This document shows, piece after piece, positions 5,018 to 54,354 of a stretch of 64,000 bases of DNA; position 1 is the stretch's first letter; each line of letters starts with the position of its first letter. The position numbers were made by a program, and so were the translations under genes. This stretch comes from an uncultured Candidatus Saccharibacteria bacterium (GTDB taxonomy: Bacteria; Patescibacteriota; Minisyncoccia; UBA6257; 1-14-0-10-40-38): contig CAZIWN010000002.1 in NCBI GenBank assembly GCA_964543265.1, forward strand, positions 29,554 to 93,553, read 5' to 3'. The notes under the pieces are model-generated. The model did no database searches, was not told the DNA's origin, and worked only from the letters and a program-made list of their open reading frames with translations.

Positions 5018-5860
5018 ATGCCCGAATTACCAGAAGTTGAAACCATAGTTGGTGACCTAAATAAAGAAATTAAAGGAAATACAATTTCCGATATTTTAGT
5101 CTTTAACGAAAGAACTTTTAAAAATTATTCTCCAAAAACAAGAGAATTGATTAAAAACTCTAAAATAGAAAAATTTGAACGTGCTGGTAAATACATAATC
5201 TTTCACCTAAAAAAAGCTGATAAAAATTCATTTTTAATAACTCATCTTAAAATGACGGGTAATTTTTCTATTATTAAAAATACAAACCCCAAAGAAATAA
5301 AAAACATCAAGCACGCGCGTGCTGCATTCGTTCTCAAATCAAAAGATGCACTTGTTTTCAAAGATATAAGAAAATTTGGAAAAATATATTTTGAAAGTAA
5401 AAACTCTGCCGAAGATCTAGAAACAATAAAAAATCTCGGCCCTGATGCCCTACTCAATCTCAATCTAAAAGAGTTTGAAAAAAATATCTTAAAAAGGAAA
5501 ACCAAAATAAAACCCCTTCTTTTAAATCAAGAATTTATTTCCGGCTTAGGCAATATTTATGCCGACGAAAGTCTTTGGTCTTCAAAAATACACCCACTTA
5601 CTCCAGCAAATAAATTATCCAAAAAACAAATAAAAGAATTATTTAATTCCATTCAAGCAATTCTTAAAACCGCTGTCGAACTAAGAGGATCTTCAATGCG
5701 AGACTATAAAGACTTACTTGGCAAAGAAGGTGGTTACATAAAAATCAGAAAAGTATATATGCGGGAAGGTCTTCCTTGTTTTAGGTGTAAAACTAAAATT
5801 ATAAAAACAAAAATAGGCGCCCGAAGCGCCCATTTCTGCCCTAACTGTCAGAAGATTTAA
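5018..5860 (+). CDS. mutM: formamidopyrimidine-DNA glycosylase (Fpg/Nei family)
   Basis: Starts MPELPEVETIV (catalytic Pro2 and Glu3). C-terminal zinc finger CFRCKTKIIKTKIGARSAHFCPNCQK. Confidence 0.85.
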   Translation: MPELPEVETIVGDLNKEIKGNTISDILVFNERTFKNYSPKTRELIKNSKIEKFERAGKYIIFHLKKADKNSFLITHLKMTGNFSIIKNTNPKEIKNIKHARAAFVLKSKDALVFKDIRKFGKIYFESKNSAEDLETIKNLGPDALLNLNLKEFEKNILKRKTKIKPLLLNQEFISGLGNIYADESLWSSKIHPLTPANKLSKKQIKELFNSIQAILKTAVELRGSSMRDYKDLLGKEGGYIKIRKVYMREGLPCFRCKTKIIKTKIGARSAHFCPNCQKI

Positions 5861-32666: not shown

Positions 32667-32785
32667 CTGCCGGCATAGCCTACTTTCCCGACCACCAAAG
32701 CAGCAAGTATCATCAGCTTTATACGGTTTCACTTCCGAGTTCGGAAAGGGATCGGGTGGGTCACGTATAAACAAAACACCAGCAG
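32667..32785 (-). rRNA. rrf: 5S rRNA
   Basis: Minus-strand sequence CTGCTGG...CCGAACTCGGAAGTGAAAC...GGTCGGGAAAGTAGGCTATGCCGGCAG has the helix I closing pair and the conserved CCGAAC/GAAGTGAAAC loop C region. ~119 nt. Confidence 0.85.
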
Positions 32786-32911
32786 ATAAAAATCCAGAAA
32801 CGTTAATAAAGAATATATTTATAGAATCAATAACCGATACAAAATAGTCATTTGGACTTTAAATTTTGATATTTAAAGTTATCATAACGTGCTTTCCGTT
32901 ACGAAAAATAT

Positions 32912-36028
<3,117 letters not shown>

Positions 36029-36149
36029 ACATATATATTTCTCGTAACGGAAAATACATTATTTCCCGTTACTTAAAGTAATTTCACAAATGACTTGTTG
36101 TCTTTCATTCTACTTAAAAATGCTCTTTTGTACCTGTGTATTTCTACAC

Positions 36150-39976: not shown

Positions 39977-40396
39977 ATGAAATTTAAATACATAGCATTA
40001 ATAATATTAGCAACTATCACTCTAATAATATGGAATCCATTTTCTGCAACCAATAAGAATAAAGACACGGTTATTAATAATCAAATAAACCCAGAAGAAA
40101 AATTGATTAATAATGAAAAAATTTCAAAAATAAATATTAATATAGACGACAATGGATTTTCACCTTCATCTTTAAAAATTAATAAGGGTGATATTGTAGC
40201 TTTCACTAATATTGGTAAAAACGCTCACTGGCCAGCATCAAATAATCATCCGTCTCATGAAATTTATCCAGAATTTGACCCAAAAAAACCCATCTCTCCA
40301 GGCTCATCTTGGGAATTCCAATTTAACAAATCCGGATCCTGGAAAATGCATGATCATCTATCTCCTAGATTTAGCGGAGTCATTATAGTTAATTAA
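39977..40396 (+). CDS. cupredoxin-fold-like secreted protein (no Cys ligand)
   Basis: 139 aa. Signal/TM, then the beta-sandwich pattern FSPSSLKINKGDIVAFTNIGKNAHWPASNNHPSH...SWKMHDHLSPRFSGVIIVN resembles plastocyanin/azurin-like domains. It has His and Met but lacks the Cys ligand. Confidence 0.45.
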   Translation: MKFKYIALIILATITLIIWNPFSATNKNKDTVINNQINPEEKLINNEKISKININIDDNGFSPSSLKINKGDIVAFTNIGKNAHWPASNNHPSHEIYPEFDPKKPISPGSSWEFQFNKSGSWKMHDHLSPRFSGVIIVN

Positions 40397-40400
40397 CTTT

Positions 40401-40432
40401 AAAAACATCCGGCTTAAAAGCCGGATGTTTTT
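40401..40432. terminator. bidirectional rho-independent terminator between convergent genes
   Basis: aaaaACATCCGGCTTaaAAGCCGGATGTtttt. Confidence 0.7.
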
Positions 40433-40436
40433 AAAG

Positions 40437-41195
40437 TTATTGTTTAATTGCTTCTAAAAATAGAAACATTGGTATCTCTTTTCTTATTCTATTCTCCTCT
40501 TCAGCCCTCTTACCTGGCTCACTTACTCTGTTAGAATTCCACTCCTCAAGACGAGAAATTAAAAAACCCGCCTTTTTCAATGCTTTAACATAAGACTGAA
40601 TTGGTCTATGAAAAGAAAATGTCACAATACTTTTATCATCGCCTGGATGCATTTCTATTTTTTGAGTAAATTCTCCTAAATATTCATCCACTCTTCTGTA
40701 TTGCCTGTTTTGCTCCTCATCCCACCCCCAACTAGATTGTTTTGGAATTCTAAAGGCCGGATGATTTAAAACTATATAAATAAATCCTCCCCTTTTTAAA
40801 ACTCTTCCCGCTTCAATTATTGCCTCTCCAAATTCTTTAATATTTTGCAAAGATAAAATAAAAACAGCCTTATTAAAAGTTGCGTCTTTAAATTGCCTTA
40901 AATCATCGGCTTTTCCTTTAATGAAGGATGGGTTAGTAATACTAACTCGTTTTTGTTCTGCAATTTTTATCAATTCTGAAGATGGCTCTACTCCAAAAAC
41001 TTTAGCCCCAGTCTTTGCAAATTCTTTTGAAAAAAATCCAGAACCAGAACCAATATCAAGTAAAACATCACCATTTTTCAATTCAAGCAATCTGACTAGA
41101 TTTGGTAATATCAAAGTCTTCTGATAACTATTATCAGAATCAACCGCATCATCGTACCACTTAGCAACATGACCCCAATCAGTATTTTTACTCAT
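40437..41195 (-). CDS. class I SAM-dependent methyltransferase
   Basis: Motif I VLDIGSGSGFFS, motif II KVFGVEPS, post-I acidic residue. 252 aa. Confidence 0.75.
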   Translation of the reverse strand: MSKNTDWGHVAKWYDDAVDSDNSYQKTLILPNLVRLLELKNGDVLLDIGSGSGFFSKEFAKTGAKVFGVEPSSELIKIAEQKRVSITNPSFIKGKADDLRQFKDATFNKAVFILSLQNIKEFGEAIIEAGRVLKRGGFIYIVLNHPAFRIPKQSSWGWDEEQNRQYRRVDEYLGEFTQKIEMHPGDDKSIVTFSFHRPIQSYVKALKKAGFLISRLEEWNSNRVSEPGKRAEEENRIRKEIPMFLFLEAIKQ

Positions 41196-41205
41196 ATTCT
41201 TTTAA

Positions 41206-41835
41206 TTATTTTTTCTCAGCAATCACAACCAATGTTTCAATATATTTTGAAGTAAAGAGGGATAAAAAATAATATATTAAATTTAATATCTTTTTTTTCC
41301 AACTCTCCTTATGCGATAACTCTAAAGTATAAATATAAGAAATTTCTTTAACTACAAAATTATTTTTTTCCAACAAGCGACGCAATGTTTTTGAATTAAA
41401 ATATGCCGTATGGTCAGAATTAACTGTGGGCTCAAACTTAGACATTTTCTCTGCAATATTAAAAAGATTAAAAGCATTCGGTGTCGTTATTATAAGCTTT
41501 CCGTTGGTCTTTAAATGTCTAAATGCGCATCCCAAAAATAATCCAGGATTTGAAAGGTGCTCAATTAAATCGCCCGCAAAAATGACGTTAAAATCAGTAT
41601 CTATAGAAAAAGATTCTGCGCTAGATTTTTTATAAAAAGCCGCCGATTGTTTTAATCGTGACAAATCATAATCAAGATCTATTCCCCAAACCTCTGACGC
41701 TCTAGATAATAAAATATTATGTACCCAATTTTCATGATCAGGATTTAATCCATGACCCCAAAAACCGACATCCAAAACAACGTCGCTTGATTCAATTTGA
41801 TTCTCTATTAATTCTTTCTTATTCCTATAAACCAT
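41206..41835 (-). CDS. class I SAM-dependent methyltransferase (second, divergent)
   Basis: VLDVGFWGHG (motif I variant) ... IFAGDLIEHL ... GKLIITTPN. 209 aa. Start overlaps the upstream gene end. Confidence 0.6.
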   Translation of the reverse strand: MVYRNKKELIENQIESSDVVLDVGFWGHGLNPDHENWVHNILLSRASEVWGIDLDYDLSRLKQSAAFYKKSSAESFSIDTDFNVIFAGDLIEHLSNPGLFLGCAFRHLKTNGKLIITTPNAFNLFNIAEKMSKFEPTVNSDHTAYFNSKTLRRLLEKNNFVVKEISYIYTLELSHKESWKKKILNLIYYFLSLFTSKYIETLVVIAEKK

Positions 41836-43345
41836 TTTGTTGAATATTTTTAGCGAGACTATCTAACAATATTTTTAAGCTATGATTATTTCTAACTATT
41901 TCTATAAAATCATTCTTGATACGTTTACGCTCTTCTGGTGATGTTTTAAATAAAAATTCAAGCTTATCCGCAAGGACCCTTGCATCTCCAGCAGGAAAAA
42001 CAAACCTATCATCAACTATTTTTGCAAAATCACTACTAGAAGCAACAACCAATAGCCCGCAAGCCATAGCTTCAAAAATAGTCTTATCAAACATACCATC
42101 CCTACTCAAATTAACAAAAAATTCATTGTTCTGATAAAAATTGACGGTCTCTCTCTTAGCTACTCCTGGAACAAAAACAACTCTATCATTAATGTTATAT
42201 TTTACTACTAATTCTTTTAAATAATCAGGATATTTAGAAGATTGATCGGATGGATCACCAACAATTGTTGCAGAAAATAATGCACCCCTCTCCTTCAAGA
42301 TACTTAAAGCCTCCAATAATATATGAATATTTTTCGACTCATCCAGTCTCCCCAAAGATAAAACACAATTTTCCAAAAAAGTTATTTTATTATTTGGAAC
42401 AAAAAAATCATCATCAACGCCAACTGGCATCTGTAAAGATTTTTTATAACGGGCAGTGTAAGAGAATTTTGATGTATAAAATACCTTATTACAAAACCAA
42501 GCAGCAAGAGAAGTCTTCCAAGAACCGGAGTAATGATTTCTCCACATAAAAATTTTTTTTCTAAACAAAATCCAGAATATTCCTCCAAGTAAAACATATT
42601 CCTCATTCATGTGCACAAACACGGCATCGTATTCTTTTCTTAAATTAAATATTAATCTATAAAAGTTTTTTAAATTTTTTAGCTTAGAAACTCCTGCCTC
42701 CTTGCCCAAAGAAAAAACATCTATATTTTCCGGCAAATTAAATTGTCCCCTATATAGACAAATTACTTTAATGCTTTCAAATCTTTTTGATAATTTTTCA
42801 ACCCAACCCTCCACAAATCCAAGAACAGAATCCTTATCATCTATTTTTTGAGTTATAAATAATAATCTATTAACCCTCATCTTGTGATCCCTGAATATAA
42901 TTTTTTTATAAAACCAAAAATTCCAAAGACCCACCAAAAATGCAGTAGTTGCCTGAGTCAGCACTAAACCATAAGATTTTCTATGAAAAAAACTTTTTAA
43001 TATACCAAAATCAAGAAAACGACCAAGTAGTGACGGTAGATTGAAAAATTCAACGAACAGATAAAACACAGCGGCATTTAAAAAAAGATTCAAAATAACA
43101 ACTCCTAAATACATAAGAACCTCACCCTTCATATAAACAGTTTCCTTATGTTTAAATGTCCAAAATTTTTGTAAACTAAAACTCACAAAAAAAGACAAAA
43201 TCAAGGCAATTGAGCTAGCCACAATATACCAAACCCTAAATTCCTCTAAAATAAATTTAAATATCAAAAGCTCAACCGAATAAGCCAAAAATCCAGATAT
43301 GGCAAATTTAAATATTTTAGTATCTTTAAAAATATTTTTTGTCAT
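41825..43345 (-). CDS. GtrA-like 4-TM domain fused to a GT1 (GT4-type) glycosyltransferase
   Basis: N-terminal ~140 aa with 4 hydrophobic helices (GtrA-like). C-terminal GT-B fold: GRLDESKNIHILLEA...VVFVPGV...GMFDKTIFEAMACGLLVVASS. Confidence 0.65.
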   Translation of the reverse strand: MTKNIFKDTKIFKFAISGFLAYSVELLIFKFILEEFRVWYIVASSIALILSFFVSFSLQKFWTFKHKETVYMKGEVLMYLGVVILNLFLNAAVFYLFVEFFNLPSLLGRFLDFGILKSFFHRKSYGLVLTQATTAFLVGLWNFWFYKKIIFRDHKMRVNRLLFITQKIDDKDSVLGFVEGWVEKLSKRFESIKVICLYRGQFNLPENIDVFSLGKEAGVSKLKNLKNFYRLIFNLRKEYDAVFVHMNEEYVLLGGIFWILFRKKIFMWRNHYSGSWKTSLAAWFCNKVFYTSKFSYTARYKKSLQMPVGVDDDFFVPNNKITFLENCVLSLGRLDESKNIHILLEALSILKERGALFSATIVGDPSDQSSKYPDYLKELVVKYNINDRVVFVPGVAKRETVNFYQNNEFFVNLSRDGMFDKTIFEAMACGLLVVASSSDFAKIVDDRFVFPAGDARVLADKLEFLFKTSPEERKRIKNDFIEIVRNNHSLKILLDSLAKNIQQNGL

Positions 43346-43346
43346 T

Positions 43347-44456
43347 TTATTTAAAAGCTTTTTGCGCGCTAATCCAAGAATCGCGATACTTTTTCAAATA
43401 TTCGGCTTCCGATATTTTATAAAAACTATTAAAATTTTTTATCCTCTTGTGTTCTCTCATTTTAGAAATTAATATCTTTGAGGCTAGTCTTGGATCTCTA
43501 GGTATTATATCTGCTCCTACTTCACCAGCCACACCACAATCAACAGAAGCAACGGGACAACCCAAAGACATTGCCTCCACCATAGTCCTTCCAAACCCCT
43601 CATATAAAGAAGTTAAAAGCAGCATATCTGCACCAAGATAGTATGGAGATAAATCATTAACCCACTCCTCTATCACAACATTTGAAGAAATCCCTGCTTG
43701 TGCAGCCTTCTTTAAAATGAATTCTTTTTCACTCCCGCTTCCAACGATTAACAAAAGTATTCTCGTGCTACCAGATACGCCTCCCCTCTTTAGAATTTCA
43801 TCCATTATTTCTATAGCTAAACCAAAATCTTTTTCCTTTTCTAATCTCGAAGCCATAAGAATTATATAATCATAATTTTTATATTTTTGCCTTAAATCAA
43901 AAAGATTTTCTTGCCCTCTTTCTCTTTTCCAATCAGTAAGTATTGGAAGCACTGTGATAAAATTTTCCGATATGCCAATCTTCATTAAAGAAAATTTAAT
44001 CCTATTAGATACCACTCTTATCTCTGAAGCTTTTTTGGTTATTAATTTTCCCAAAACAACTCTGACATCGTTTAAAAATGATAGTTTTCTAAATAATGGA
44101 TTTAAAAAATCAGTATGAATTTGAATATGTAATGGTAGTTTGAATTTTTTAGCCAAAATTCTCGCAATTAAACCGCATTCAAAAGGATCCTGGGAAGATA
44201 CTATGTCTATTTTATTTTCTTTGATTATTCTTTTTCCTAAAAAATAAAATTTAAAAAGAAATCCCAACTTGTAAGAGTTTTTAGTCGGATATAAATATAA
44301 GCTGCCGTCACGCATAAAATCTAAACCATCTTTTTTATTACTTTTTATAACCACGTGAAGACCATCGCAAAGATCAGAATATTTCTTCAATCTTAAAAAA
44401 GTTTCTGAAGTTTTCGAGAAGGCATTTTTATCCGTTCCTAAAACTAATACTTTCAT
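43347..44456 (-). CDS. glycosyltransferase family 1
   Basis: C-terminal EGFGRTMVEAMSLGCPVASVDCGVAGEV is the GT1 E-x7-E-like motif region. Confidence 0.75.
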   Translation of the reverse strand: MKVLVLGTDKNAFSKTSETFLRLKKYSDLCDGLHVVIKSNKKDGLDFMRDGSLYLYPTKNSYKLGFLFKFYFLGKRIIKENKIDIVSSQDPFECGLIARILAKKFKLPLHIQIHTDFLNPLFRKLSFLNDVRVVLGKLITKKASEIRVVSNRIKFSLMKIGISENFITVLPILTDWKRERGQENLFDLRQKYKNYDYIILMASRLEKEKDFGLAIEIMDEILKRGGVSGSTRILLLIVGSGSEKEFILKKAAQAGISSNVVIEEWVNDLSPYYLGADMLLLTSLYEGFGRTMVEAMSLGCPVASVDCGVAGEVGADIIPRDPRLASKILISKMREHKRIKNFNSFYKISEAEYLKKYRDSWISAQKAFK

Positions 44457-44458
44457 TC

Positions 44459-45592
44459 TTATAAATTAAATAGTCTCAAAATTTTATCAGAGTAATCATT
44501 CCAAGATACTTGATATTTTATACTTTCCAGGCTTTTTTGATAAGCCTTATAATTCCTTTCATTAGCTAGATATTCGAAAATATTTAAAAGCTCTAATTTA
44601 TTAAAAGGATCAAACGTTTTAGCTTTTCCCTCTAAAAAATATTGAAAACCAGTTTCTTCGGTGCAAATAAACGGAGTTCCAACAGAAAAAGAGTCTAAAA
44701 CAGAATTTGGTGTCATATCAGATAATGACGGTAAAACATAAAGATAAGATTTATAAAGCTCTCTTAAAAAATCTGCCCTTAAAAGAGCTGGTCCAATAAC
44801 TATTCCAGCATTAATTCCGCCCAATCCCCTAACCCTATCTTCCAAATCTTTCCTATAAGGACCATCTCCTAAAATTTTTAATTTAAATTCTTTATGATCT
44901 TTTCTAAATTCTAAAAATACATCTATTAAAAAATCTAGATTTTTTAATCTCATTATTCTTCCAGCATATATAATCGTTTTTTCTCTATCTTTATAATTCA
45001 ATTCACTTTCTAATTCATTTTTACTTTCGTAAGGATTTTCTATAATTGAAATGCTTTTTTCATTTATGGAATAATTTTTAACAAAAACACTCTTTTGAAG
45101 CTCTCCGGAAAAAACAATCTTATATGCCCTGACCAATGAAAAGTTTATTAGATATTTAATAATTTTCTCCTTTAGAGATAAATTAGATTCATAATATTTC
45201 TTAAACATTCCAAAATAGGCGCCAGACTCAACAGCTTTCTCCCATAAAAAATCACCACCATTTCTAATAATTAATCTCTTTCTTAAAAATAAATTAGCCA
45301 AAACAGATGGAAATGCTGCTGAAAAATTATCTAAAACTAAAATAGCATCACATTTTTTACCAAGCCTAAGACAAGCAAAAAGATAATTTAGATGCCTAAA
45401 TTTAGATTTTCTAGAAATCCTAAAAACCTCAAACCCTTGCTCTAAAGAAGATTCAGAATTATCGGCGAAAGTTAAAACGGAAACTTTAACACCCCTCTCT
45501 AAAGACCAAATCTTGGCCAATCTTCTTGCGTATTCACCAGATCCGCCCAATTCTGGTGGATAAATTCCGGTGGCTATCAAAATTGATTTCAT
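44459..45592 (-). CDS. glycosyltransferase family 1
   Basis: N-terminal ILIATGIYPPELGGSGEY and C-terminal GT-B nucleotide-binding half. Confidence 0.7.
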   Translation of the reverse strand: MKSILIATGIYPPELGGSGEYARRLAKIWSLERGVKVSVLTFADNSESSLEQGFEVFRISRKSKFRHLNYLFACLRLGKKCDAILVLDNFSAAFPSVLANLFLRKRLIIRNGGDFLWEKAVESGAYFGMFKKYYESNLSLKEKIIKYLINFSLVRAYKIVFSGELQKSVFVKNYSINEKSISIIENPYESKNELESELNYKDREKTIIYAGRIMRLKNLDFLIDVFLEFRKDHKEFKLKILGDGPYRKDLEDRVRGLGGINAGIVIGPALLRADFLRELYKSYLYVLPSLSDMTPNSVLDSFSVGTPFICTEETGFQYFLEGKAKTFDPFNKLELLNIFEYLANERNYKAYQKSLESIKYQVSWNDYSDKILRLFNL

Positions 45593-45593
45593 A

Positions 45594-47774
45594 TTATTGC
45601 CTTAAAGTCGAAATAAAATCTTTCATTTCTTCTCTTAATATATTCCAATCATACTTACCCCATACAAATTTAAAAGCCTTCTTAGACAAATCATCTCTAA
45701 GCTCTTTATTGTTTAAAATTAAAATTATTTTATTAGCCAAATCATTTTCGTCTTCTATTTTCATCTCTAATCCATTTTCACCATCCCTTAAAAAATCCGC
45801 TATTCCTCCAACTCTTGGAGCTATTATTGGCAAACCAAGAGCCATAGCCTCCAAAAAAGAACTTCCCAACCCCTCAGATCTAGATGGCCTAATGAAAACA
45901 TATGCCTCTCTTAAAAAATCTGGAATTTTATCATATTCAACCTGCCCCTTAAATGAAACCAAATTAGAAATTCCCAAATCAAAAGCTAATTTTTTTAAAT
46001 TATCTTCTTCTGGACCACTACCCGCAATTTCTAAAACCGAATTAAATTTCTCCTTAGAATTTTTTGCTAAATCTCTAGCCTTGGCAAAAGCTTTTATTAA
46101 AATATCTATGCCATTTTTATTAACCAATCTAGAAGTTGTTACTATTCTTTTAGCACCAACAAAATTAATGGGCAAATCAAAATCTTTTTTAAAAACCTCG
46201 AAATCAACTCCATTAGGAATTATTTTAATTTCTGATTTAGCCCCATGTTTTTTAGCAAATTCTCCCAAATAAGAACTTATAACTTGAATTTTATCCGCCT
46301 TTTTGAAAATCATTTTCCATAAAGGATAAAATATACCCACCCTTCTTAATATGTGACTTTCGGAATCTCCCTCCTGTAAAGTTAAAATAAAAGGAATCTT
46401 TGGATGTCTCAATTTAAACAATAGCGCCGCAAATCCTCCATAAGAAGCCATCATTCCCCAAATAGCGTCGAATGGCTTTTTTTTATGCTCAATCTCGGCT
46501 CTTCTCCAGGCCCTAAAAACATAAAGTATTTTTTCGAAACGCCTACCATAATAATCTCCAGATCCTCCCCTACCAACGCGAATTATGCTCGCACCAGAGT
46601 TTTCATCTATTCCCTCCCATTCAGCATTAAATTTATTGGTAAAAATTTTAAATCCAAAAGGCATTCTCTTTATAAATTCTCTAAGAGCAATTTCAGCTCC
46701 ACCCTCAAAAGGAAAATATGCCAAAGAAAAGACTGCAATATTAGAATTGTCCGCAAAAATCTTTCTTGTTACTGAAGAAGAAAACTCGGTTATTTTTTCC
46801 TCTTCCAAACCGACTAACCAATCCTGATTTTTCAAAAACCAATCTATAAATATTTTAACTCCATCCTCAATTTTAACTTTTGGCTTAAATCCAAAATCCT
46901 TATTTGCCCTCGAAGTATCGGCGATGGTAGCCGGAACATCTCCAGACTGAATCGGCATCAATTTCACCTTAGCTTTAATTCCTAGATTTTTTTCAATTAA
47001 ATGAACAAATTTTTTAAGAGACGTTGAGTCTGGCCCTCCAAGATTATAAATCTTACATCCCCTTATATCTTTTTTAATTATTCCCATTATTCCATCAACA
47101 ATGTCGCTTACGTAAGTGAAATTTCTCGTCATCTCTCCATTATTAAAAAGCATTATCTCTTTTCCCTGAATAATGTTTTTAGCAAACTTAAACAAAGCTA
47201 AGTCTGGCCTTCCATATTCTCCATAAACCGTAAAAAATCTTAAGCCGACAGTATCCATTCCCGACAAGTTATGATAAGAATATGCCAAGAGTTCATTAGC
47301 TCTTTTAGAAACTGCATACATAGACATCGGACTGCTAACGTCCTGACTCTCAGAAAAAGGCATTTCTTTATTGGCTCCGTAAACGGAACTAGAAGAAGCG
47401 TATAAAACTTTTTTAATACCCAAAGCCCTAGCTCCCTCGAAGATATTTAATGTGCCAATATAATTAGACTCTGCATAAGCCCAAGGATTTATTAATGAAT
47501 ATCTAACACCCGCCTGAGCAGCTAAATGAATTATTAAATCTGGTTTTTCTTTAGAGAAAATATCCTTAAGTTTTTCATAATCAACAATGTTTGTTTTATA
47601 AAATTTAAACTTTGGAAATTTACCTAAAATATTATTTCTGGCATATTTCATCCTCACATCGTAATAGTCTGTTATACAATCAATTCCAACCACACTCCAC
47701 CCCTCAGACAACATCCTCTTAGCAAGATGAAAACCTATAAATCCAGAAGTTCCGGTAATGAGCGCTTTTTTCAT
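45594..47774 (-). CDS. bifunctional fusion: NAD-dependent epimerase/dehydratase (UDP-sugar 4-epimerase-like SDR) plus C-terminal GT1 glycosyltransferase
   Basis: N-terminal Rossmann ITGTSGFIGFHLAKRML, catalytic SSSSVYG...YAVSK (YxxxK). C-terminal ~370 aa has SEGLGSSFLEAMALGLPIIAPRVGGIADFL, the GT1 motif. Confidence 0.8.
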   Translation of the reverse strand: MKKALITGTSGFIGFHLAKRMLSEGWSVVGIDCITDYYDVRMKYARNNILGKFPKFKFYKTNIVDYEKLKDIFSKEKPDLIIHLAAQAGVRYSLINPWAYAESNYIGTLNIFEGARALGIKKVLYASSSSVYGANKEMPFSESQDVSSPMSMYAVSKRANELLAYSYHNLSGMDTVGLRFFTVYGEYGRPDLALFKFAKNIIQGKEIMLFNNGEMTRNFTYVSDIVDGIMGIIKKDIRGCKIYNLGGPDSTSLKKFVHLIEKNLGIKAKVKLMPIQSGDVPATIADTSRANKDFGFKPKVKIEDGVKIFIDWFLKNQDWLVGLEEEKITEFSSSVTRKIFADNSNIAVFSLAYFPFEGGAEIALREFIKRMPFGFKIFTNKFNAEWEGIDENSGASIIRVGRGGSGDYYGRRFEKILYVFRAWRRAEIEHKKKPFDAIWGMMASYGGFAALLFKLRHPKIPFILTLQEGDSESHILRRVGIFYPLWKMIFKKADKIQVISSYLGEFAKKHGAKSEIKIIPNGVDFEVFKKDFDLPINFVGAKRIVTTSRLVNKNGIDILIKAFAKARDLAKNSKEKFNSVLEIAGSGPEEDNLKKLAFDLGISNLVSFKGQVEYDKIPDFLREAYVFIRPSRSEGLGSSFLEAMALGLPIIAPRVGGIADFLRDGENGLEMKIEDENDLANKIILILNNKELRDDLSKKAFKFVWGKYDWNILREEMKDFISTLRQ

Positions 47775-47852
47775 AAAATCTATATAATATAGCTATCTTT
47801 CTTTAATTAAAACCTTTCCTTGAAATCTACAGTTTTATAACAATAATCTTAT

Positions 47853-49007
47853 ATGAAAAGTCATAAAACTAAAATCCTCTATATAATAACCAAATCTGAC
47901 GTAGGCGGAGCTCAAAAATACGTGACCGACCTCTCAAATAATATTAATCCTGATATTTTTGAATCAAAAATAATTTATGGCGGACAGGATATAAAATCTC
48001 TATCCAACAAAACAAATCCTGGCTTATTTTTTTGGAATGATTGGAAGGCTATTTTTGAAATAGTAAAAATCTTAAGAAAAGAGTCTCCAGACATTATTCA
48101 TCTTAATAGCTCTAAAGCAGGAGTTTTAGGATCTCTCGCTGGACTGATTTATAAAAAAACCACTAATCAAAAATTAAAAATTATTTTTACTGCTCATGGT
48201 TGGATATTTAATCCTCAAAATAAGATTTCAAAATTAGAACATTTTTCCTACATAGCCCTCCATAAAATCTCTAGTCTTTTTCAAGACATAGTTATTAATG
48301 TCTCAAATTACGATAAAGAAATCGCTCTAAAATTTAACATAGCCAATCCTAAAAAATTAAAAGTAGTTTGGAATGGAATATACGAAAATATTAATTTTTT
48401 AAAGAGAGATGAGGCTAGAACGTTATTGCTTAAAAAAATACAAAACCAATCCCCAATCAAAATCACTCCAACAGAATTTCAAAACTCCAACATGGTAGGA
48501 TCAATCGGCAGACTAGTTAAAGAAAAAGATTATGAAACCCTAATCAAAGCTGCAAAACTAACAAATGAATCTATTTTTATAATTATTGGCGACGGATACG
48601 AAAAAGAAAAATTAGAAAATTTAATCAGATATTTTTCCTTAGAAAACAAATTTTTTCTTATCAAAAATGAAGGTAATGATGCTAGGTTTTTAAAAGCCTT
48701 TGATGCCTTTATTTTATCTTCTGTAAAAGAAGGTCTCCCCTACACATTAATAGAGGCGATGTCTTCTATGGTTCCAGTTATAGGAACTAAAACTGGCGGC
48801 ATAACAGAAATAATTAAATCTCAAAATTCAGAAAATGGAATCCTGGTAAATGTTAAAAATCCTCAAGAAATTACCCAGGCCATCGAAAATCTGAGAACCA
48901 ATCAAAATTTAAGAGAAAAGTTAACTAAGAATGCTTATAGCTTTTTTAAGAATCATTTAACTCTTAAGAACATGGTTCAGAGTACAGAAAAAATCTATCT
49001 AGAATAA
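47853..49007 (+). CDS. glycosyltransferase family 1
   Basis: 384 aa. DVGGAQKYV N-terminus. C-terminal KEGLPYTLIEAMSSMVPVIGTKTGGITEII. Confidence 0.75.
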   Translation: MKSHKTKILYIITKSDVGGAQKYVTDLSNNINPDIFESKIIYGGQDIKSLSNKTNPGLFFWNDWKAIFEIVKILRKESPDIIHLNSSKAGVLGSLAGLIYKKTTNQKLKIIFTAHGWIFNPQNKISKLEHFSYIALHKISSLFQDIVINVSNYDKEIALKFNIANPKKLKVVWNGIYENINFLKRDEARTLLLKKIQNQSPIKITPTEFQNSNMVGSIGRLVKEKDYETLIKAAKLTNESIFIIIGDGYEKEKLENLIRYFSLENKFFLIKNEGNDARFLKAFDAFILSSVKEGLPYTLIEAMSSMVPVIGTKTGGITEIIKSQNSENGILVNVKNPQEITQAIENLRTNQNLREKLTKNAYSFFKNHLTLKNMVQSTEKIYLE

Positions 49008-49029
49008 TAATATAGCATTAATAATAGAC

Positions 49030-49070
49030 AAAAAACAAAAAGCCCCGCTTTCGCGGGGACTTTTTGTTTT
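49030..49070. terminator. bidirectional rho-independent terminator between the convergent GT gene and the surface-protein gene
   Basis: aaaaAGCCCCGCtttcGCGGGGACtttttgtttt. Confidence 0.75.
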
Positions 49071-49094
49071 GAACATAACCTCTCTAACAAGCGA

Positions 49095-52000
49095 CTATTC
49101 GAATGAAACAGTGCTTGTGATTGGGATAATTCTGTCTTCGAGATATAAGGTCTCAGAAGCTGAATTTCCTTGAGATGACCATGTCAAAGCGGAGCTGCTT
49201 CCTAACTGCCATGACAAGCTGTCAGAAGTATTGGCAACGTTAGCAAATGCAGTCGAATCAACTCTCAACTTGAACACTTTGGATGTTCCTTGTGTTACAA
49301 GATAAGGAGTTGGAAGAGTCATTCCTAATCCAGTTGTTGTCGCATTTGTTGCGCTGGTGGTAGAAGTGATTGTGCTTCCTGTATCGCTGTCTACAAGTGA
49401 TAATGTTATGCCAGTTGCTCCAGATCCTAGGGCTGCACCAGAGAACTTGATTTGGAGAGTCTTTAACTCAACACCGTAATTTGCATCAGCGGTTATGGTT
49501 ATAGTTCCAATATCATCGTTCGCCTGTCTGGTTCTATTAGAAGTTGCTCCTAATGTTCCCAAGGCAGGGGTAAGCTTTGTTCTCAAAGCAGTTTGAATGT
49601 TTGAGGTCAAAGTCTGTGTGCTGCTAGAAGTTGTAGCAGTAACTTGCGTGTTCGAATCAACTCCGAAAGCTTTAATATCACCTCCTAATGTTGGAGTTGT
49701 ACTCGCAGAATTAATGGTGAATTGATAAAGCTTATTATGAGATGAGGTTGAATTCGTGAACGAAGCAACGTCTCCCTTCAAGGTATATGTCTTGGTTGTA
49801 TTCTTTGGAACAATCATAGAGCTTCCGAATGAAAAGTCAGAAGTATAATATGATGTCGAAGAAGCGACCAAAGAAGTTCCCGTTGGGCCAACTTGTGTAG
49901 CTCCGTCAAAGAATCTTAGATTGCTGAAAGTAGCAGGAGCTCCAGCAGATGTAGAAGCTGTAATTCTCAAGGTATCAAGTCTGATATCTTCATTATTATC
50001 AGCTGTAAATCTGAATTGAGCCAATGTTACACCATTTGATCCTAATACTATCTGTTGAGCAGATGGAGTAGAAGTATCAACTGTAGCAGTCAAAGTTCCA
50101 GCAGAAGCAACAACTATGTTTTGTCCATAGATTGGGTTAGATGAAGAAACAGCTGCACTGGTTGTTGCCAATGTCTGACTGCTTCTTGTAACAGCCCCAA
50201 CTCCAGTTGCTCCAGTGATTGATGTTGGAGCGCTGTATGTTGCAGCAGATGAACCGCTCAAAACATCTCCATAAACATCAAGGGTAATAGATGATCCGGC
50301 TGGGATCAAAGTTACGCCATTTGGTGATGTAAATGTGTATGCAGTAGAAGCGGCCAACGTTGGAACGTTATAGTTCCATTCTGTTGAACCATTCTTAACT
50401 CTCAAGTTTTGGACCTTCAATCCCGATGTAACATCCGAGGATGTTTTAACCGTGACATTGCTGACTTCAATTCCTTCAGCCGAAGAAGCTGAGAATGAGT
50501 ATGAACCCAATTTTCTCATTTGTCCTCCAGCTACATAGGTCTGAGCTCCAAATCCAGTGTTTTGTGAGGCCAAGAATGGAGAAGCAATGATTGTCAAAGC
50601 TGATCCATCCAATGTTCCTCCTGGAGCAGAAGCAGTCTGGAACGAAACTTGTCCTTCTATGTTAGATCCAGTAAATCCGGATGTTCCTGAAGGAGCAACT
50701 AATGATCCCTTAATAGAGCTAGAGGTTGCAGTTGTAGGAATTTCTACCTTCAAGCTCAACACTCTTGTAGTATTAGCTGGAATTATATAGTTGACGTTTG
50801 AAGAACTAGAACCAAATGAACAAATATAGGTTGCGCTCGTAGCTGCTGTTGCATATTCAGCAGTTCCATAAGTGCAAGATGATAATGTTCCAATTTCAGT
50901 TCCAACCTGTATTCCGTCATCTCCAACTAAACTTACGGCTCCAATTAAGCTGTCAATGTTTCCAGAGGAAACGCTAACTCCAGCAGTTGTGCTTGCTGTG
51001 AAGGTTAGTTTAAATGGTAACCATTTAATTCTAACGGCTTCTCCAGAAGCTCTAAGGTCAAATTTAGCCAAGGTAACATTTGTTGATCCCTTAGCAATAT
51101 TGCCTGTTGGGGTATTAACGTTTGTAGAAGCGGTTACTGTTCCAGCTCTTACTGTAACTTCCGTTGCAGAAGATGATGGTGTTCCACCGCTAATATTGGT
51201 GTTGTACTGTGTATCAGTTACAACCCAATCATATGGTCTCTGTAATTCAATCTTAACTGTTCTATTTGGAGTTCCAAGTACATCAAAGAATAAATCCATG
51301 ACGTGTGTTCCAGTTGTTAAGACTGGAGCGTTGGAAGCCATATCGAAAGTGATTTTTCCAGTAGCATCGGTGGATGCAGCTGTTCCAACAACTTTTCCAT
51401 CAATCATTAACTGGAAGTTTCTTGTATCGCTTCCTTTATTATTAGATCCAGTATCTCTCAAGGTTACATTACTGACCTTAATCGGGCTGTTTGAAACAGA
51501 GATTGTCCAAGCAGCTCCCCTGAATCCCATTGTTCCGGCATCAACAGTAGAAGCAACTCCTGTGTATGCAAAAGTTGCAACTGATGCTAATGATGGATTG
51601 GAAACGCTGGTAGTTACGAAGTTACCTCCATTGATTGGGAAGCTTCCTCCGACAGATCCAGTTGAAAGAGTGATATCAGATGCATTGGCCAAAGTGAACG
51701 ACAACGTATTACCGTTAGAAGCTCCTGTGGACATATCCATTCTGAGCCAAACATCAACAGTCTGACCTGCTGGGACTTCAAACAAATTTCCAGAGAAATT
51801 TACCATTCCTCCAGACAAGCTGTTGTACTGAGCAGCAATTGAACTGCCTACAGACAAATAAGCATTGGTAATGTTTGAATCTGAAACTACACCAGTCTTT
51901 AAGAATTTAGCTCCTGTGACCCAAACGTTTTGGTTTGTGCCGTTAGAAACTTTAAAGTTTAAAACTGGAATTTGAGCTGCGCCAGAAATAACTGATCCTC

Positions 52001-52490
52001 CAACATTAGATCCAGGGACGATAGTTACTTGTCCAGTAACAACTGGGGTAACTGTTGTTCCTCCGTTTCCTGTTGATGGAGTATATACAGCCATTGAAGC
52101 ATAAGCAGCTCTTGATTTAGATCCGAAATATCCTACAGCTGGGCTGATTCCGGAAGCAGATTGCCAAGCGGCAACTGCAGCTTTAGTCAAAGAACCGAAA
52201 TATCCCGTTGCGGAATAATTCAAGTGTCCTTTTGCTCTCAAGACATTCTGTAAGCAAGTAACATCATCTCCCTTAGCACCAACGGTGAGGTCGCGGGTGA
52301 AAGTGCAAGAAGCTGCTGTTGAAACAGAGGATCCTGATTGTAAAGCTACAAGCTGGGCTTGTAATTGGGCGATTTGCTGCAACAAAGCACTGATATCAGT
52401 TGTTTGAGCAGAAACCGATCCAACCAATACTGATCCAGAAAGCCACAAAACTGTCGCTAACACTAACATTCTAGAAAATATTTTACTCAT
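49095..52490 (-). CDS. large secreted Ser/Thr/Gly/Ala-rich cell-surface protein with N-terminal coiled-coil and a peptidoglycan-binding domain (S-layer/sheath-like candidate)
   Basis: 1131 aa. Signal peptide MSKIFSRMLVLATVLWLSGSVLVGSVSA|Q, then LLQQIAQLQAQLVALQ coiled-coil, then a PG_binding_1-like block DLTVGAKGDDVTCLQNVLRAKGHLNYSATGYFGSLTKAAVAAWQSASGI. The remaining ~950 aa are beta-rich and extremely rich in T/S/G/A/V/N with almost no charged residues. Confidence 0.75.
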   Translation of the reverse strand: MSKIFSRMLVLATVLWLSGSVLVGSVSAQTTDISALLQQIAQLQAQLVALQSGSSVSTAASCTFTRDLTVGAKGDDVTCLQNVLRAKGHLNYSATGYFGSLTKAAVAAWQSASGISPAVGYFGSKSRAAYASMAVYTPSTGNGGTTVTPVVTGQVTIVPGSNVGGSVISGAAQIPVLNFKVSNGTNQNVWVTGAKFLKTGVVSDSNITNAYLSVGSSIAAQYNSLSGGMVNFSGNLFEVPAGQTVDVWLRMDMSTGASNGNTLSFTLANASDITLSTGSVGGSFPINGGNFVTTSVSNPSLASVATFAYTGVASTVDAGTMGFRGAAWTISVSNSPIKVSNVTLRDTGSNNKGSDTRNFQLMIDGKVVGTAASTDATGKITFDMASNAPVLTTGTHVMDLFFDVLGTPNRTVKIELQRPYDWVVTDTQYNTNISGGTPSSSATEVTVRAGTVTASTNVNTPTGNIAKGSTNVTLAKFDLRASGEAVRIKWLPFKLTFTASTTAGVSVSSGNIDSLIGAVSLVGDDGIQVGTEIGTLSSCTYGTAEYATAATSATYICSFGSSSSNVNYIIPANTTRVLSLKVEIPTTATSSSIKGSLVAPSGTSGFTGSNIEGQVSFQTASAPGGTLDGSALTIIASPFLASQNTGFGAQTYVAGGQMRKLGSYSFSASSAEGIEVSNVTVKTSSDVTSGLKVQNLRVKNGSTEWNYNVPTLAASTAYTFTSPNGVTLIPAGSSITLDVYGDVLSGSSAATYSAPTSITGATGVGAVTRSSQTLATTSAAVSSSNPIYGQNIVVASAGTLTATVDTSTPSAQQIVLGSNGVTLAQFRFTADNNEDIRLDTLRITASTSAGAPATFSNLRFFDGATQVGPTGTSLVASSTSYYTSDFSFGSSMIVPKNTTKTYTLKGDVASFTNSTSSHNKLYQFTINSASTTPTLGGDIKAFGVDSNTQVTATTSSSTQTLTSNIQTALRTKLTPALGTLGATSNRTRQANDDIGTITITADANYGVELKTLQIKFSGAALGSGATGITLSLVDSDTGSTITSTTSATNATTTGLGMTLPTPYLVTQGTSKVFKLRVDSTAFANVANTSDSLSWQLGSSSALTWSSQGNSASETLYLEDRIIPITSTVSFE

Positions 52491-52643
52491 GTATGTGACT
52501 TAAAAAAAATTATTGATTTTATTTTATAATTACTAACTTTTAGGATGACTCTTGTGATGCTCGACCAAAAAGTCTTCCATTTTCAGGAAAAGCCGGTAAC
52601 GTCAGAGACCGACCAAGGGCTCTTAACGCCAAGCTTCTTTTAA

Positions 52644-52676
52644 CAAAAAAATCTCGCTCTTTGTGTGAAGCGAGAC
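52644..52676 (-). terminator. rho-independent terminator inside the 470-bp intergenic region upstream of the surface-protein gene
   Basis: On the minus strand GTCTCGCTtcacacaaagAGCGAGAT followed by ttttttt. Confidence 0.55.
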
Positions 52677-52766
52677 TGCGAGAAAAAAACAACAAGCCCC
52701 TTAGGGTATGAATATACCGCAAAAAGCCTGTAAAATAACGTTCCTCGCCTAGCCTCACACTAAGCA
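52644..52766 (-). ncRNA. candidate small transcript (~120 nt) bounded by a near-consensus promoter and an intrinsic terminator; identity unknown (sRNA or attenuated 5' leader)
   Basis: Promoter TTGAAA-N17-TATAAT at 52773..52801 (minus), terminator at 52644..52676. The interval has no credible ORF. The track ORF 52540..52767 reads through the terminator and is probably spurious. Confidence 0.3.
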
Positions 52767-52772
52767 AAACAT

Positions 52773-52801
52773 ATTATATCAGGTACCCCGATATATTTCA
52801 A
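52773..52801 (-). promoter_or_regulatory. sigma-70-type promoter, TTGAAA-17 nt-TATAAT
   Basis: Minus-strand TTGAAAtatatcggggtacctgaTATAATatg. Both hexamers match consensus with ideal spacing. Confidence 0.4.
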
Positions 52802-52962: not shown

Positions 52963-53625
52963 CTATATATTTCTAACCCTATAAAAACTAGCCGGACCAG
53001 AACCAACTCTTTCAAGGCGACCCTCGGCACATGCCCTAGTTAAATCATATCTCAAAGTTCTTTCGCTAATATTTGGAAAGAGAGTGATTAAATCCTTTAA
53101 TTGAGCCGGCTTATCCATTTGCCTTATTTTATCTATTATAGAGGTTTGCCTTATTGCCGTATTGTCATTTGCCGCATTAAAACCATTATTAGAATCTAAT
53201 TGTTCATTAGCGGATAAATTTAAGGATTCGGCAATAACATCGCTCTTTGCCTTATTATTAGTTTTATTATCCTTCTTAAAGTTTGCCGTATTTTTATGAA
53301 TTTGATCATTGAGACCAAGATAATTACCATCAGAACTTAAACCGGTAACCATTCCCCTAGAAACATCATCCAATAAAGAAGATAATTCCTTTTTAACTAT
53401 TAACGCGTTTAATGGCTCTATTTCATAGATTATTTTACCGAAATCAACCAATCCAATAGCTAAATTAATAGACTCTATAACCTCTTCTCTCTTATTTAAG
53501 ATAACCCTTTCTAGCAAATCTAAAGACAATCTCTCTAATCTAGCCCTAAAATCATGCCTCCTTGAAGATACGGCAATTTGTATAAGTGCCAAGCTTATTT
53601 TTTTAACCCTCTCTTGTAGCTCCAT
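52963..53625 (-). CDS. hypothetical protein with an N-terminal helical bundle and a C-terminal winged-helix DNA-binding-like domain
   Basis: 220 aa. The C-terminus ISERTLRYDLTRACAEGRLERVGSGPASFYRV looks like a wHTH recognition helix plus wing. A central Asn-rich low-complexity segment separates the domains. Confidence 0.45.
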   Translation of the reverse strand: MELQERVKKISLALIQIAVSSRRHDFRARLERLSLDLLERVILNKREEVIESINLAIGLVDFGKIIYEIEPLNALIVKKELSSLLDDVSRGMVTGLSSDGNYLGLNDQIHKNTANFKKDNKTNNKAKSDVIAESLNLSANEQLDSNNGFNAANDNTAIRQTSIIDKIRQMDKPAQLKDLITLFPNISERTLRYDLTRACAEGRLERVGSGPASFYRVRNI

Positions 53626-53681: not shown

Positions 53682-54275
53682 TTAAAGTAAAAGCAATGCC
53701 AACACAAAAGCTGCTAAAGCGAAAAAAGATATAGTCACACCCCTAACATCAACTCTTTCCCTAAAAACCAAAAAGAAGCTAGAAATAATAGTTACTAAGC
53801 TCAAAAAATAAGCCACAGATTCTCCGCTAGAAAAAATTAACCTAGAAATGAAAAACGACTCTGAAACTATAAGAGCTAAAACAGAAGACTTCAAAAAGCT
53901 ATTTTTCAAAGGGGCCAATCCCCCATCTTCACCGTAACTAACACTCATAGACCCAACAAACAAAAACATTACAAATAAAAATAATAAAGGTAATAAAAAA
54001 ATCATCTCTATGCCTCTAAATGAATTAAATTCAAAAAAAGCATAGAAAAATATGAAATTAGCCAAAACATAGTTCCACTCCCTTTTTCTCACAAAATAAT
54101 TATTTCTTAAACCTAAAGATATAAAGAAAACCACAGAGGCAGAAAATGAGGATATTAAAAAGTCTAAGCCACTAAAATTAAAAGCTGAAAAAAAACTCAA
54201 TATTAAAGAATATAGAAAAGGAAAAAAGAATTGAAAAAATCTCTTAGATTCAAAGCCATACAAAGCAAAACCCAT
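53682..54275 (-). CDS. polytopic membrane protein of unknown function (start uncertain)
   Basis: The track ORF runs to 54407 and would overlap the clpB 3' end by 53 nt. The internal Met at ~54275 (MGFALYGF...) avoids the overlap. Very Phe/Leu-rich, at least 6 TM. Confidence 0.4.
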   Translation of the reverse strand: MGFALYGFESKRFFQFFFPFLYSLILSFFSAFNFSGLDFLISSFSASVVFFISLGLRNNYFVRKREWNYVLANFIFFYAFFEFNSFRGIEMIFLLPLLFLFVMFLFVGSMSVSYGEDGGLAPLKNSFLKSSVLALIVSESFFISRLIFSSGESVAYFLSLVTIISSFFLVFRERVDVRGVTISFFALAAFVLALLLL

Positions 54276-54354
54276 TAAAACAATCAAAAATTGAAGGAAA
54301 AAAGACCCTCCGCTTAAATGAAGTAAAAATATGGATAGAAAAAATATCAGAGAC

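Follow-up and report, generated by a model that had tools for sequence, protein, structure and literature searches.

A glycan-assembly operon beside a candidate S-layer protein in Paceibacteria: a possible pathway for surface-protein glycosylation

Does a tight operon of glycosyltransferase (GT) genes build a glycan for the large surface protein encoded beside it? The question is raised by a 64-kb stretch of contig CAZIWN010000002.1 (hereafter the window), in which region 40437-52490 holds eight genes: a six-gene minus-strand operon, a divergent GT gene (GTdiv) and the gene for a 1131-aa secreted protein that we call SURF (Table 1). An earlier note on this DNA had read the region as a surface-protein glycosylation locus. 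The pairing of SURF with a glycan ligase in relatives supports that idea, but the adjacency of operon and SURF proves to be lineage-specific; taken alone, the window presents an ordinary-looking glycan operon with a plausible, putative link to its neighbour. The comparative data make SURF a very probable glycosylation target, or at the least the partner of a glycan ligase. The window is chromosomal, with about 33% GC and a set of housekeeping genes (rpoB/C, sigma-70, dnaG, recA, nusA, clpB, H+-PPase, ftsW), and its proteins have homologs under the names Paceibacterota, Parcubacteria, Yanofsky-, Jorgensen-, Wolfe-, Lipton- and Azambacteria, which places the host in the class Paceibacteria of the Candidate Phyla Radiation.

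The strongest evidence lies directly behind SURF in other genomes. We extracted six-frame open reading frames (ORFs) from 84 SURF loci and searched them with the window proteins and the Wzy_C proteins of one relative. Among the 68 species-level loci with at least 3 kb of flank downstream of SURF, 45 carry, immediately downstream and on the same strand, a gene for a protein of 690-860 aa with 10-12 predicted transmembrane (TM) segments, an O-antigen-ligase (Wzy_C) domain and a C-terminal tetratricopeptide repeat (TPR) domain. A second, shorter Wzy_C paralog is present in 14 loci, either as the next gene behind the first or in divergent orientation immediately upstream of SURF, and in locus L090 (SURF 50% identical) a Wzy_C gene is likewise divergent and just upstream. 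No Wzy_C gene lies beside SURF in L006, L001, L003 or L004 (SURF 78%, 62%, 55% and 44% identical). Genes for PglL-type O-oligosaccharyltransferases usually adjoin the gene of their target, in 21 of 31 cases (PMC3643930).

By domain, by fold and by conserved Arg/Arg/His residues, the SURF-adjacent ligase of the relatives belongs to the WaaL/PglL family. In an alignment of 34 Wzy_C-TPR sequences, R297, G315, G317, D344 and H347 are invariant, P312 is present in 32 and R223 in 21; judged against published numbering (PMC3643930) rather than by direct alignment, the spacing of these residues is within one or two of R298, P313, G316, G318, H349 and R224 of NmPglL, where G316 and G318 are listed as PglL-specific. 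The relation to WaaL (PDB 7TPG/7TPJ) emerged from fold searches, at a sequence identity of about 16-18%. Sequence searches against the PDB were swamped by TPR proteins, and the membrane part alone gave no match. Unlike WaaL, the protein from these Candidate Phyla Radiation (CPR) bacteria carries an extra TPR domain of about 300 aa, and CPR cells lack lipopolysaccharide, so that the lipid A-core acceptor of a WaaL-type enzyme would be unavailable. Among Gram-positive bacteria, the surface-layer (S-layer) O-oligosaccharyltransferases WsaB and WsfB carry Wzy_C, and WsfB, like PglL, has a C-terminal TPR domain (PMC2943079). The simplest reading of these sequences is that Wzy_C-TPR would be an O-oligosaccharyltransferase dedicated to SURF, and the comparison as a whole strongly suggests that SURF has a dedicated glycan ligase as its partner.

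In some relatives the gene that immediately follows SURF encodes a protein of about 450-505 aa without a Pfam match (L007 3585-5102; L090 13864-15351; L016 13354-14697). By hydropathy scan the L007 and L016 proteins are polytopic (7 and 11 predicted TM segments), the former with a large C-terminal soluble part, and such proteins may be unrecognised GT-C-like transferases that replace Wzy_C-TPR.

SURF itself has the makings of an S-layer protein. Between its wall-binding domain and a chain of beta-sandwich domains that runs to the C-terminus (AlphaFold2 model, mean pLDDT 83) lies a low-complexity linker rich in Ser, Thr, Pro and Gly (residues ~133-150), which is variable and of low complexity throughout the family; PglL substrates use flexible low-complexity segments (PMC3643930). 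The large region described in the earlier note as beta-rich, S/T-rich and charge-free is indeed beta-rich and S/T-rich (residues 150-1131, 29% Ser+Thr), but it is not charge-free: D, E, K and R make up 10.7%, against about 28-31% charged residues in most housekeeping proteins compared, and the composition is acidic as well. There are no tandem repeats, and with its folded domains SURF is not a serine-rich-repeat adhesin. When the model was compared with PDB structures by Foldseek, all matches were to generic multi-Ig arrays (PrgB, alpha-2-macroglobulin, mastigoneme) and none was specific to an S-layer protein; the TM-scores were low (0.1-0.2) because the domains are flexible. Members of the SURF family align along the whole protein, at 35-80% identity, across Paceibacteria; there are at least 535 of them in 90% clusters, and 50% clusters yield 378 representatives at E<=1e-30. 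The gene order clpB, small membrane protein, p220, SURF is conserved across 79 species-level genomes. From this conserved full-length family and neighbourhood, SURF is a core envelope protein of the class. It is also a reasonable S-layer candidate, its lattice being a prediction: the suggestive features are the class-wide full-length family, a strong promoter-like site, an N-terminal wall-binding domain, a beads-on-a-string series of beta domains, and an S/T-rich, low-charge, acidic composition. In the literature that we searched, no paper names an S-layer protein of Paceibacteria or reports on its glycosylation. Highly expressed proteins with peptidoglycan-binding domains have been reported in Paceibacteria (PMC10936435), which we treat as a lead only, since the one traceable entry was listed with length 2079 and its identity with SURF is unconfirmed.

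Many of the GTDB records with a Paceibacteria-type SURF locus (L009-L011, L016-L018 and others; third-party, or TPA, assemblies) are titled 'uncultured Candidatus Saccharibacteria bacterium', and a few are titled Armatimonadota, Thermoleophilia, Terriglobia or Acidobacteriota. These look like mislabelled bins or contaminant contigs.

Clusters of family 4 glycosyltransferases (GT4) also recur behind SURF. They lie within 10 kb downstream of it in about 10 of 69 loci and upstream of it in none of 67. After SURF, or after SURF and Wzy_C-TPR, these clusters start with a GTdiv ortholog on the opposite strand, and GTdiv is the window GT most consistently tied to SURF in relatives: its orthologs score 628 bits in L006, 475 in L001, 168 in L007, 131 in L033 and 191-225 in L057, L065, L070 and L075, with fragments of 86-94 bits in L078. 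Apart from this ortholog, cluster content varies between lineages. The Azambacteria-type loci (L057, L065, L070, L075, L078) hold GT4s, DUF2334 and a methyltransferase, and several of them also a PMT_2-like GT-C, a GT2 or both; L009 combines an epimerase with a GT4::methyltransferase fusion and Wzx; and L090 has a TagD-like cytidylyltransferase, a CDP-alcohol transferase, a GT2, a methyltransferase, Wzy_C and Wzx. An ortholog of the window Methyltransf_11 gene (291 bits) sits inside the L001 cluster. All three pairwise adjacencies are therefore observed: SURF with the ligase, as above; the ligase with a GT cluster, in L009, L033, L057, L065, L070, L075, L078 and L090; and the GT operon with SURF, in the window, L006 and L001. 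In L085, Wzy_C and Wzx accompany the orthologous GT operon.

The window operon lines up consecutive GTs, a sugar-nucleotide enzyme and glycan-modifying enzymes, as in S-layer glycosylation (slg) loci, and its intergenic distances range from -11 to +10 bp. The earlier note agrees with the ORF map and Pfam in its coordinates and in most of its domain assignments, but not in its counts. Six genes rather than seven are co-directional, the remaining one being divergent; the five GTs plus a divergent GT reduce to five GT domains, of which two stand alone, two belong to fusions and one is divergent, and instead of three stand-alone co-directional GTs there are two. The bidirectional terminator that it placed at the end of the island is real, but it divides GTdiv from SURF, and the operon ends at a separate hairpin (Table 1). 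All five GT domains match Glycos_transf_1 at 56-127 bits against a Pfam cut-off of 26.4 and none matches GT2, so the choice between GT4 and GT2, which had been left open, falls to GT4 for every one. No GT, methyltransferase or Wzy_C protein tested reached an NCBIfam equivalog or subfamily cut-off, and an exact-protein look-up of the epimerase::GT4 fusion and of SURF matched no record. Horizontal acquisition of the island is unsupported, its GC content of 29-33% not being anomalous against a window background of about 30-39%.

Two of the operon's proteins are fusions. In the first, the short-chain dehydrogenase/reductase (SDR) domain spans residues 4-307 by Pfam (domain 1-~320) and the GT4 domain residues ~390-726. 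The SDR domain reads as an epimerase and not a dehydratase because the Ser/Tyr/Lys set is present (SSSSVYG...YxxxK, with YAVSK) and the dehydratase TDE motif is absent; the motif RFFTVYG..GRPD is also found. Its best PDB match, 5u4q at 9e-98, was deposited as 'dTDP-glucose 4,6-dehydratase', the Bacillus UDP-GlcA epimerase BcUGAepi (6zl6/6zla) ranks third at 8e-42, and GalE and RmlB tie in NCBIfam, both under the cut-off. From its motifs we take the domain, with moderate confidence as to substrate, to be probably of the UDP-glucuronate 4-epimerase type. In the second fusion, the GtrA domain shows three hydrophobic segments starting at residues 11, 36 and 74 in a simple hydropathy scan.

How general is the operon, and where does it usually lie? 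More than 1000 proteins, about 48% identical, are homologous to the GT domain of the GtrA::GT4 protein, and most of the matches listed are stand-alone proteins of about 345 aa. We inspected five distant Paceibacteria genomes around the orthologous GT operon (L085-L089), three of which have a separate GtrA gene beside the GT ortholog. In L085 and L086 the order is that of the window (GT-E, GT377, GT369, GtrA/GT-G, Methyltransf_23): orthologs of the epimerase-fusion GT domain head the operon (277 and 241 bits, respectively), and orthologs of the 377-aa GT4 (168 and 161 bits) and the 369-aa GT4 (205 and 188 bits) hold the same positions. The Methyltransf_23 gene follows the GtrA/GT pair in L085, L086 and L087. 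The window operon thus appears, by sequence, to be this lineage's copy of a glycan-assembly operon that is collinear across Paceibacteria. Lineages add to it in different ways: Wzx and Wzy_C-TPR in L085; PMT_2 and GT2 in L086; an ABC exporter in L088, along with a UDP-glucose dehydrogenase::GT4 fusion that parallels the epimerase::GT4 fusion of the window and points to uronic acids in the glycan. DegT/FdtA-type sugar-nucleotide enzymes also occur among the five clusters.

In all five of these genomes the operon follows the gene for a TrwB-like ATPase, in most cases together with DUF4015 and a Mur ligase gene, and SURF is not beside it. Synteny with the surface protein, on which the earlier note had staked its reading, therefore largely fails in distant relatives. 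The SURF-adjacent arrangement is common only to the two closest relatives examined, L006 and L001. In the window, a TrwB-like gene and a stray GT4 gene near tRNA-Pro still mark the usual site, from which we conclude that the operon moved next to SURF in this lineage; the stray GT4, whose ortholog (362 bits) lies inside the L086 cluster, appears to be a remnant there. The ATPase encoded beside the glycan operon in L085-L089 resembles the coupling ATPases of type IV secretion systems.

Taking together the gene content, the collinearity of the operon, the synteny statistics, and the fold and conserved residues of the relatives' ligase family, we tentatively favour, at somewhat under an even chance, an S-layer-glycan-like lipid-carrier pathway that decorates SURF. 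At the inner membrane face, soluble GT4s would assemble a short oligosaccharide on a lipid carrier, with the GtrA-like, polyprenyl-phosphate-type membrane domain as their tether or guide. The epimerase domain would supply the GT fused to it with a sugar nucleotide epimerised at C4, probably UDP-galacturonate derived from UDP-glucuronate. The two S-adenosylmethionine (SAM)-dependent methyltransferases may add methyl groups or a cap to the glycan, a role that WsaE has in Geobacillus (PMC2943079). The glycan would then be flipped and transferred en bloc, by a WaaL/PglL-type ligase with an extracytoplasmic TPR domain, to Ser/Thr residues of SURF, plausibly in the linker and in exposed loops. The ligase, the flippase and any priming enzyme of this genome would be encoded outside the window.

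The earlier note reported no Wzx, Wzy, Wzz, priming transferase or ligase, which holds across all 64 kb, and took this to argue against a classical polysaccharide locus. The relatives reverse that argument. Because their homologous or SURF-adjacent clusters carry Wzx (L009, L085, L090), an ABC exporter (L088), Wzy_C ligases and GT-C enzymes, a classical en-bloc lipid-linked route is the most likely one.

Several points weigh against SURF glycosylation by this operon. The window holds no Wzy_C homolog, as judged by phmmer with 67 proteins from relatives and by Pfam scans that covered nearly every ORF of 100 aa or more, and thus no O-oligosaccharyltransferase of the slg kind. It holds no flippase or ABC exporter, the GtrA-like domain being all there is, and no priming phosphoglycosyltransferase of the WbaP/WsaP or WecA type; nor was a Bac_transf or MraY-type priming enzyme seen in any relative's cluster inspected. 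No GT matched a curated NCBIfam model at its cut-off. In five distant genomes the operon's ortholog sits elsewhere, so that its place beside SURF is a trait of this lineage and could be coincidental. Across orders the core GTs share about 48% identity, a level found more typically with a core envelope polymer than with S-layer glycans, which vary; a core polymer would explain such class-wide conservation no less well than an S-layer glycan would. Wzy_C enzymes also act as polymerases, or as ligases with non-protein acceptors.

These points lead to the alternative that survives best, which we consider unlikely though far from negligible: that the operon makes an envelope glycoconjugate not covalently on SURF, a teichuronic-acid-like acidic wall polysaccharide or a lipoglycan, with the Wzy_C proteins as polymerase or ligase and SURF near by through clustering of envelope genes or non-covalent binding of the polymer, in the way that secondary cell-wall polymers are bound by S-layer proteins. 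It would account for a collinear operon that is strongly conserved throughout the class and usually lies by Mur ligase genes instead of SURF, for the uronic-acid signatures (the epimerase type and the L088 dehydrogenase::GT4 fusion), for weak TuaC-like NCBIfam matches, and for the two Wzy_C paralogs per locus, which could be polymerase and ligase; TuaE of Bacillus subtilis is a Wzy_C-type polymerase. The tua operon of that species also resembles ours in its GT4s and uronic-acid nucleotide metabolism, and the relatives in Wzx and Wzy_C-type proteins, but no TuaA-type priming enzyme, Wzz or LCP ligase was seen, and the TuaC-model score is 81.6 against a cut-off of 550. Set against a wall polymer are the TPR protein-interaction domain and PglL-like GxG/His signature of the SURF-adjacent Wzy_C, its strict position after SURF in 45 of 68 genomes, which is the pattern of a target-specific O-oligosaccharyltransferase (PMC3643930), the absence of an LCP-type wall ligase and of Wzz from every cluster, and the direct peptidoglycan-binding domain of SURF itself.

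A bolder version of SURF glycosylation, which we hold to be rather doubtful, is that the window shows part of an undescribed envelope module common to Paceibacteria, a major CPR class, and made up of a SURF S-layer, a dedicated TPR-bearing PglL-like O-oligosaccharyltransferase whose gene comes directly behind SURF, and a class-wide all-GT4/GtrA/methyltransferase operon that lacks a conventional priming phosphoglycosyltransferase and has here moved beside its target. In such a module the GtrA-GT4 pair might start synthesis on polyprenyl phosphate.

It is improbable, in our judgement, that the adjacency is an accident of rearrangement and that the operon modifies an unrelated target, be it glycolipids built on scavenged host lipids, pilins, or the window's second S/T-rich surface protein, a Calx-beta protein (Table 1). 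The relocation of the operon, with a stray GT4 left at the ancestral TrwB-like site, would suit such an accident, and there are weak matches to monoglucosyl-diacylglycerol synthase and GlcN-PG synthase models; these scores are far under the cut-offs, however, and independent, non-orthologous GT clusters stand beside SURF or Wzy_C-TPR in several other lineages, with GT4 genes downstream of SURF in 9-10 loci against none of 67 upstream, a recurrence hard to explain by chance.

Direct glycosylation of SURF in the cytoplasm by soluble GT4s, without an oligosaccharyltransferase and in the manner of GtfA/GtfB or SdgA/SdgB on serine-rich adhesins, a reading implicit in the earlier note's emphasis on missing lipid-carrier genes, is very improbable: it would suit a window that lacks Wzx, ligase and priming transferase, and GTs that are all GT4 (the family of GtfA, SdgA and SdgB) with weak matches to those models, but the scores are far under the cut-offs (GtfA 54 against 574.6; SdgA 35-39 against 800), the signal peptide of SURF is ordinary with accessory SecA2/SecY2 absent from the window, SURF is a folded beta-sandwich array free of serine-rich tandem repeats, and the GtrA domain and the relatives' Wzx, ABC, GT-C and Wzy_C genes point to a lipid-linked route. 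A flagellin-type locus, to which the earlier note had likened the island, is ruled out, as the window has neither flagellar genes nor flagellin-type features.

The nearest known system for the glycosylation of SURF appears to be the Gram-positive slg locus, as in Geobacillus stearothermophilus NRS 2004/3a (sgsE, wsaA-F, wsaP, wzm/wzt) and Paenibacillus alvei (spaA, wsfB). The sgsE gene adjoins its slg cluster, and slg glycans are methyl-capped (PMC2943079). As at those loci, the gene for a large secreted, wall-anchored protein is monocistronic and adjoins a compact operon of GT, sugar-nucleotide and methyltransferase genes, some of them multidomain fusions; SURF, with its signal peptide, PG_binding_1 domain and position convergent with GTdiv, supplies the secreted target, and the relatives' transfer enzyme shares with WsfB of P. 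alvei a Wzy_C domain and a C-terminal TPR (PMC2943079). Membership would be incomplete, because the defining oligosaccharyltransferase, exporter (ABC or Wzx) and WsaP-type priming enzyme are missing from the window. Further differences are that the window GTs are all GT4, one of them paired with GtrA; that the anchor of SURF is PG_binding_1 and not an SLH or secondary cell wall polymer-binding domain; that the host is a CPR bacterium, in which S-layer formation by SURF is a prediction; and that the GT operon is conserved class-wide and not strain-variable.

Other systems share single traits. As with PilO/TfpO-pilA of Pseudomonas aeruginosa and PglL-comP of Acinetobacter baylyi, the relatives' ligase gene lies downstream of, and co-oriented with, that of its presumed substrate, and the R...P..G.G...H signature is spaced as in NmPglL (PMC3643930), by numbering and not by alignment; unlike in those systems, the presumed substrate is an 1100-aa Ig-array wall protein rather than a pilin, the host is monoderm-like, and the ligase is absent from the window. 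With GtrA/GtrB/GtrC systems the window shares a GtrA-family membrane domain (61.7 bits), and relatives' clusters add GT2 and PMT_2/GT-C enzymes (such enzymes occur among L057, L065, L075, L078 and L086). Of the three Gtr components, however, only GtrA is found in the window, fused or paired with a GT4 instead of a GtrB-type GT2, and no GT2 or GT-C is encoded there.

CPR/Patescibacteria make up a large share of bacterial diversity. If SURF is glycosylated as proposed, SURF and Wzy_C-TPR would be class-wide candidates for the major surface glycoprotein of Paceibacteria cells, in which SURF would form the interface of ultra-small cells with their surroundings, including any hosts or phages, and both would be targets for metaproteomics, cryo-electron tomography, antibody or lectin capture, and heterologous glyco-engineering. 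If a wall polymer is made instead, the operon would mark a conserved CPR wall glycopolymer that is likewise undescribed.

Table 1. Positions of the features discussed (window coordinates unless a relative's locus is named; a dot marks features of no single strand).
Feature	Position	Strand	Evidence or remark
SDR epimerase::GT4 fusion, 726 aa	45594-47774	-	operon gene 1; Pfam Epimerase 1e-54, Glycos_transf_1 9.5e-37
GT4, 377 aa	44459-45592	-	Pfam Glycos_transf_1 and Glyco_trans_1_4
GT4, 369 aa	43347-44456	-	Pfam
GtrA::GT4 fusion, 506 aa	41825-43345	-	GtrA_DPMS_TM 61.7 bits (residues 13-151), Glycos_transf_1 74.9 bits
SAM methyltransferase, Methyltransf_23, 209 aa	41206-41835	-	Pfam; 11-bp overlap with GtrA::GT4 gene
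SAM methyltransferase, Methyltransf_11, 252 aa	40437-41195	-	Pfam; final operon gene
Bidirectional terminator hairpin, perfect 20-bp stem	40394-40439	.	closes operon; convergent with cupredoxin-like gene
Divergent promoter region, 78 bp	47775-47852	.	between operon and GTdiv; ORF map
Promoter-like site TTGAAA-16-AATAAT	47820-47847	+	consensus match only
GTdiv, divergent GT4, 384 aa	47853-49007	+	Pfam
Bidirectional intrinsic terminator CCCCGC-TTTC-GCGGGG, A/T-run flanks	49043-49058	.	common to GTdiv and SURF
SURF, 1131-aa secreted protein	49095-52490	-	signal peptide, short helix, PG_binding_1 (residues 74-116), linker, beta-sandwich chain
SURF leader, ~280 nt, in 470-bp gap before SURF	52491-52801	-	contains terminator-like hairpin
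Terminator-like hairpin and T-run	52677-52650	-	~100 nt after promoter-like site, ~160 nt before SURF start codon; consensus match
SURF promoter-like site TTGAAA-17-TGnTATAAT, near-consensus extended -10	52801-52773	-	consensus match only
p220, cytoplasmic, C-terminal winged helix, low-complexity middle	52963-53625	-	weak PaaX-like match, residues 165-216
p241, membrane protein, 8 predicted TM segments	53682-54407	-	start overlaps clpB end by 53 bp
Stray GT4	11409-12566	+	near tRNA-Pro and TrwB-like gene; Pfam
TrwB/TraG-like coupling ATPase	13013-15487	-	near tRNA-Pro and stray GT4
Secreted Calx-beta protein, 1406 aa	15978-20198	+	five Calx-beta domains, two PG_binding_1 near C-terminus
UDP-glucose/GDP-mannose dehydrogenase::GT4 fusion	L088 8019-9995		parallels window epimerase::GT4 fusion

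Upstream of SURF, the hairpin within the leader could be a leader or attenuator element, or it could be the terminator of p220, in which case the true SURF promoter would be a different one. Homologs of p220, which has no TM segments and only weak, sub-threshold Pfam matches, lie directly upstream of SURF in about 50 loci, and p220 is probably a dedicated regulator. The membrane protein p241 matched no family above a curated cut-off; homologs of it were detected only in L001, L002 and L006, and an ORF of similar size occupies the same position in L003, L005 and L090. The Calx-beta protein, the second giant secreted protein of the window, resembles SURF in composition (25.5% S/T, 12.9% charged) and is a possible further glycosylation target.

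Elsewhere in the window, an rRNA block (32668-36031, minus strand) holds 23S and then 5S, with 16S found nowhere in the 64 kb, which points to an unlinked rRNA arrangement. The 23S rRNA (32912-36031, minus strand) is 3120 nt long against 2925 nt for the Rfam model and has a possible insertion of about 195 nt. The alanyl-tRNA synthetase (5857-7602, minus strand) is 581 aa long and consists of the core and the second additional domain, without the long C-terminal region.

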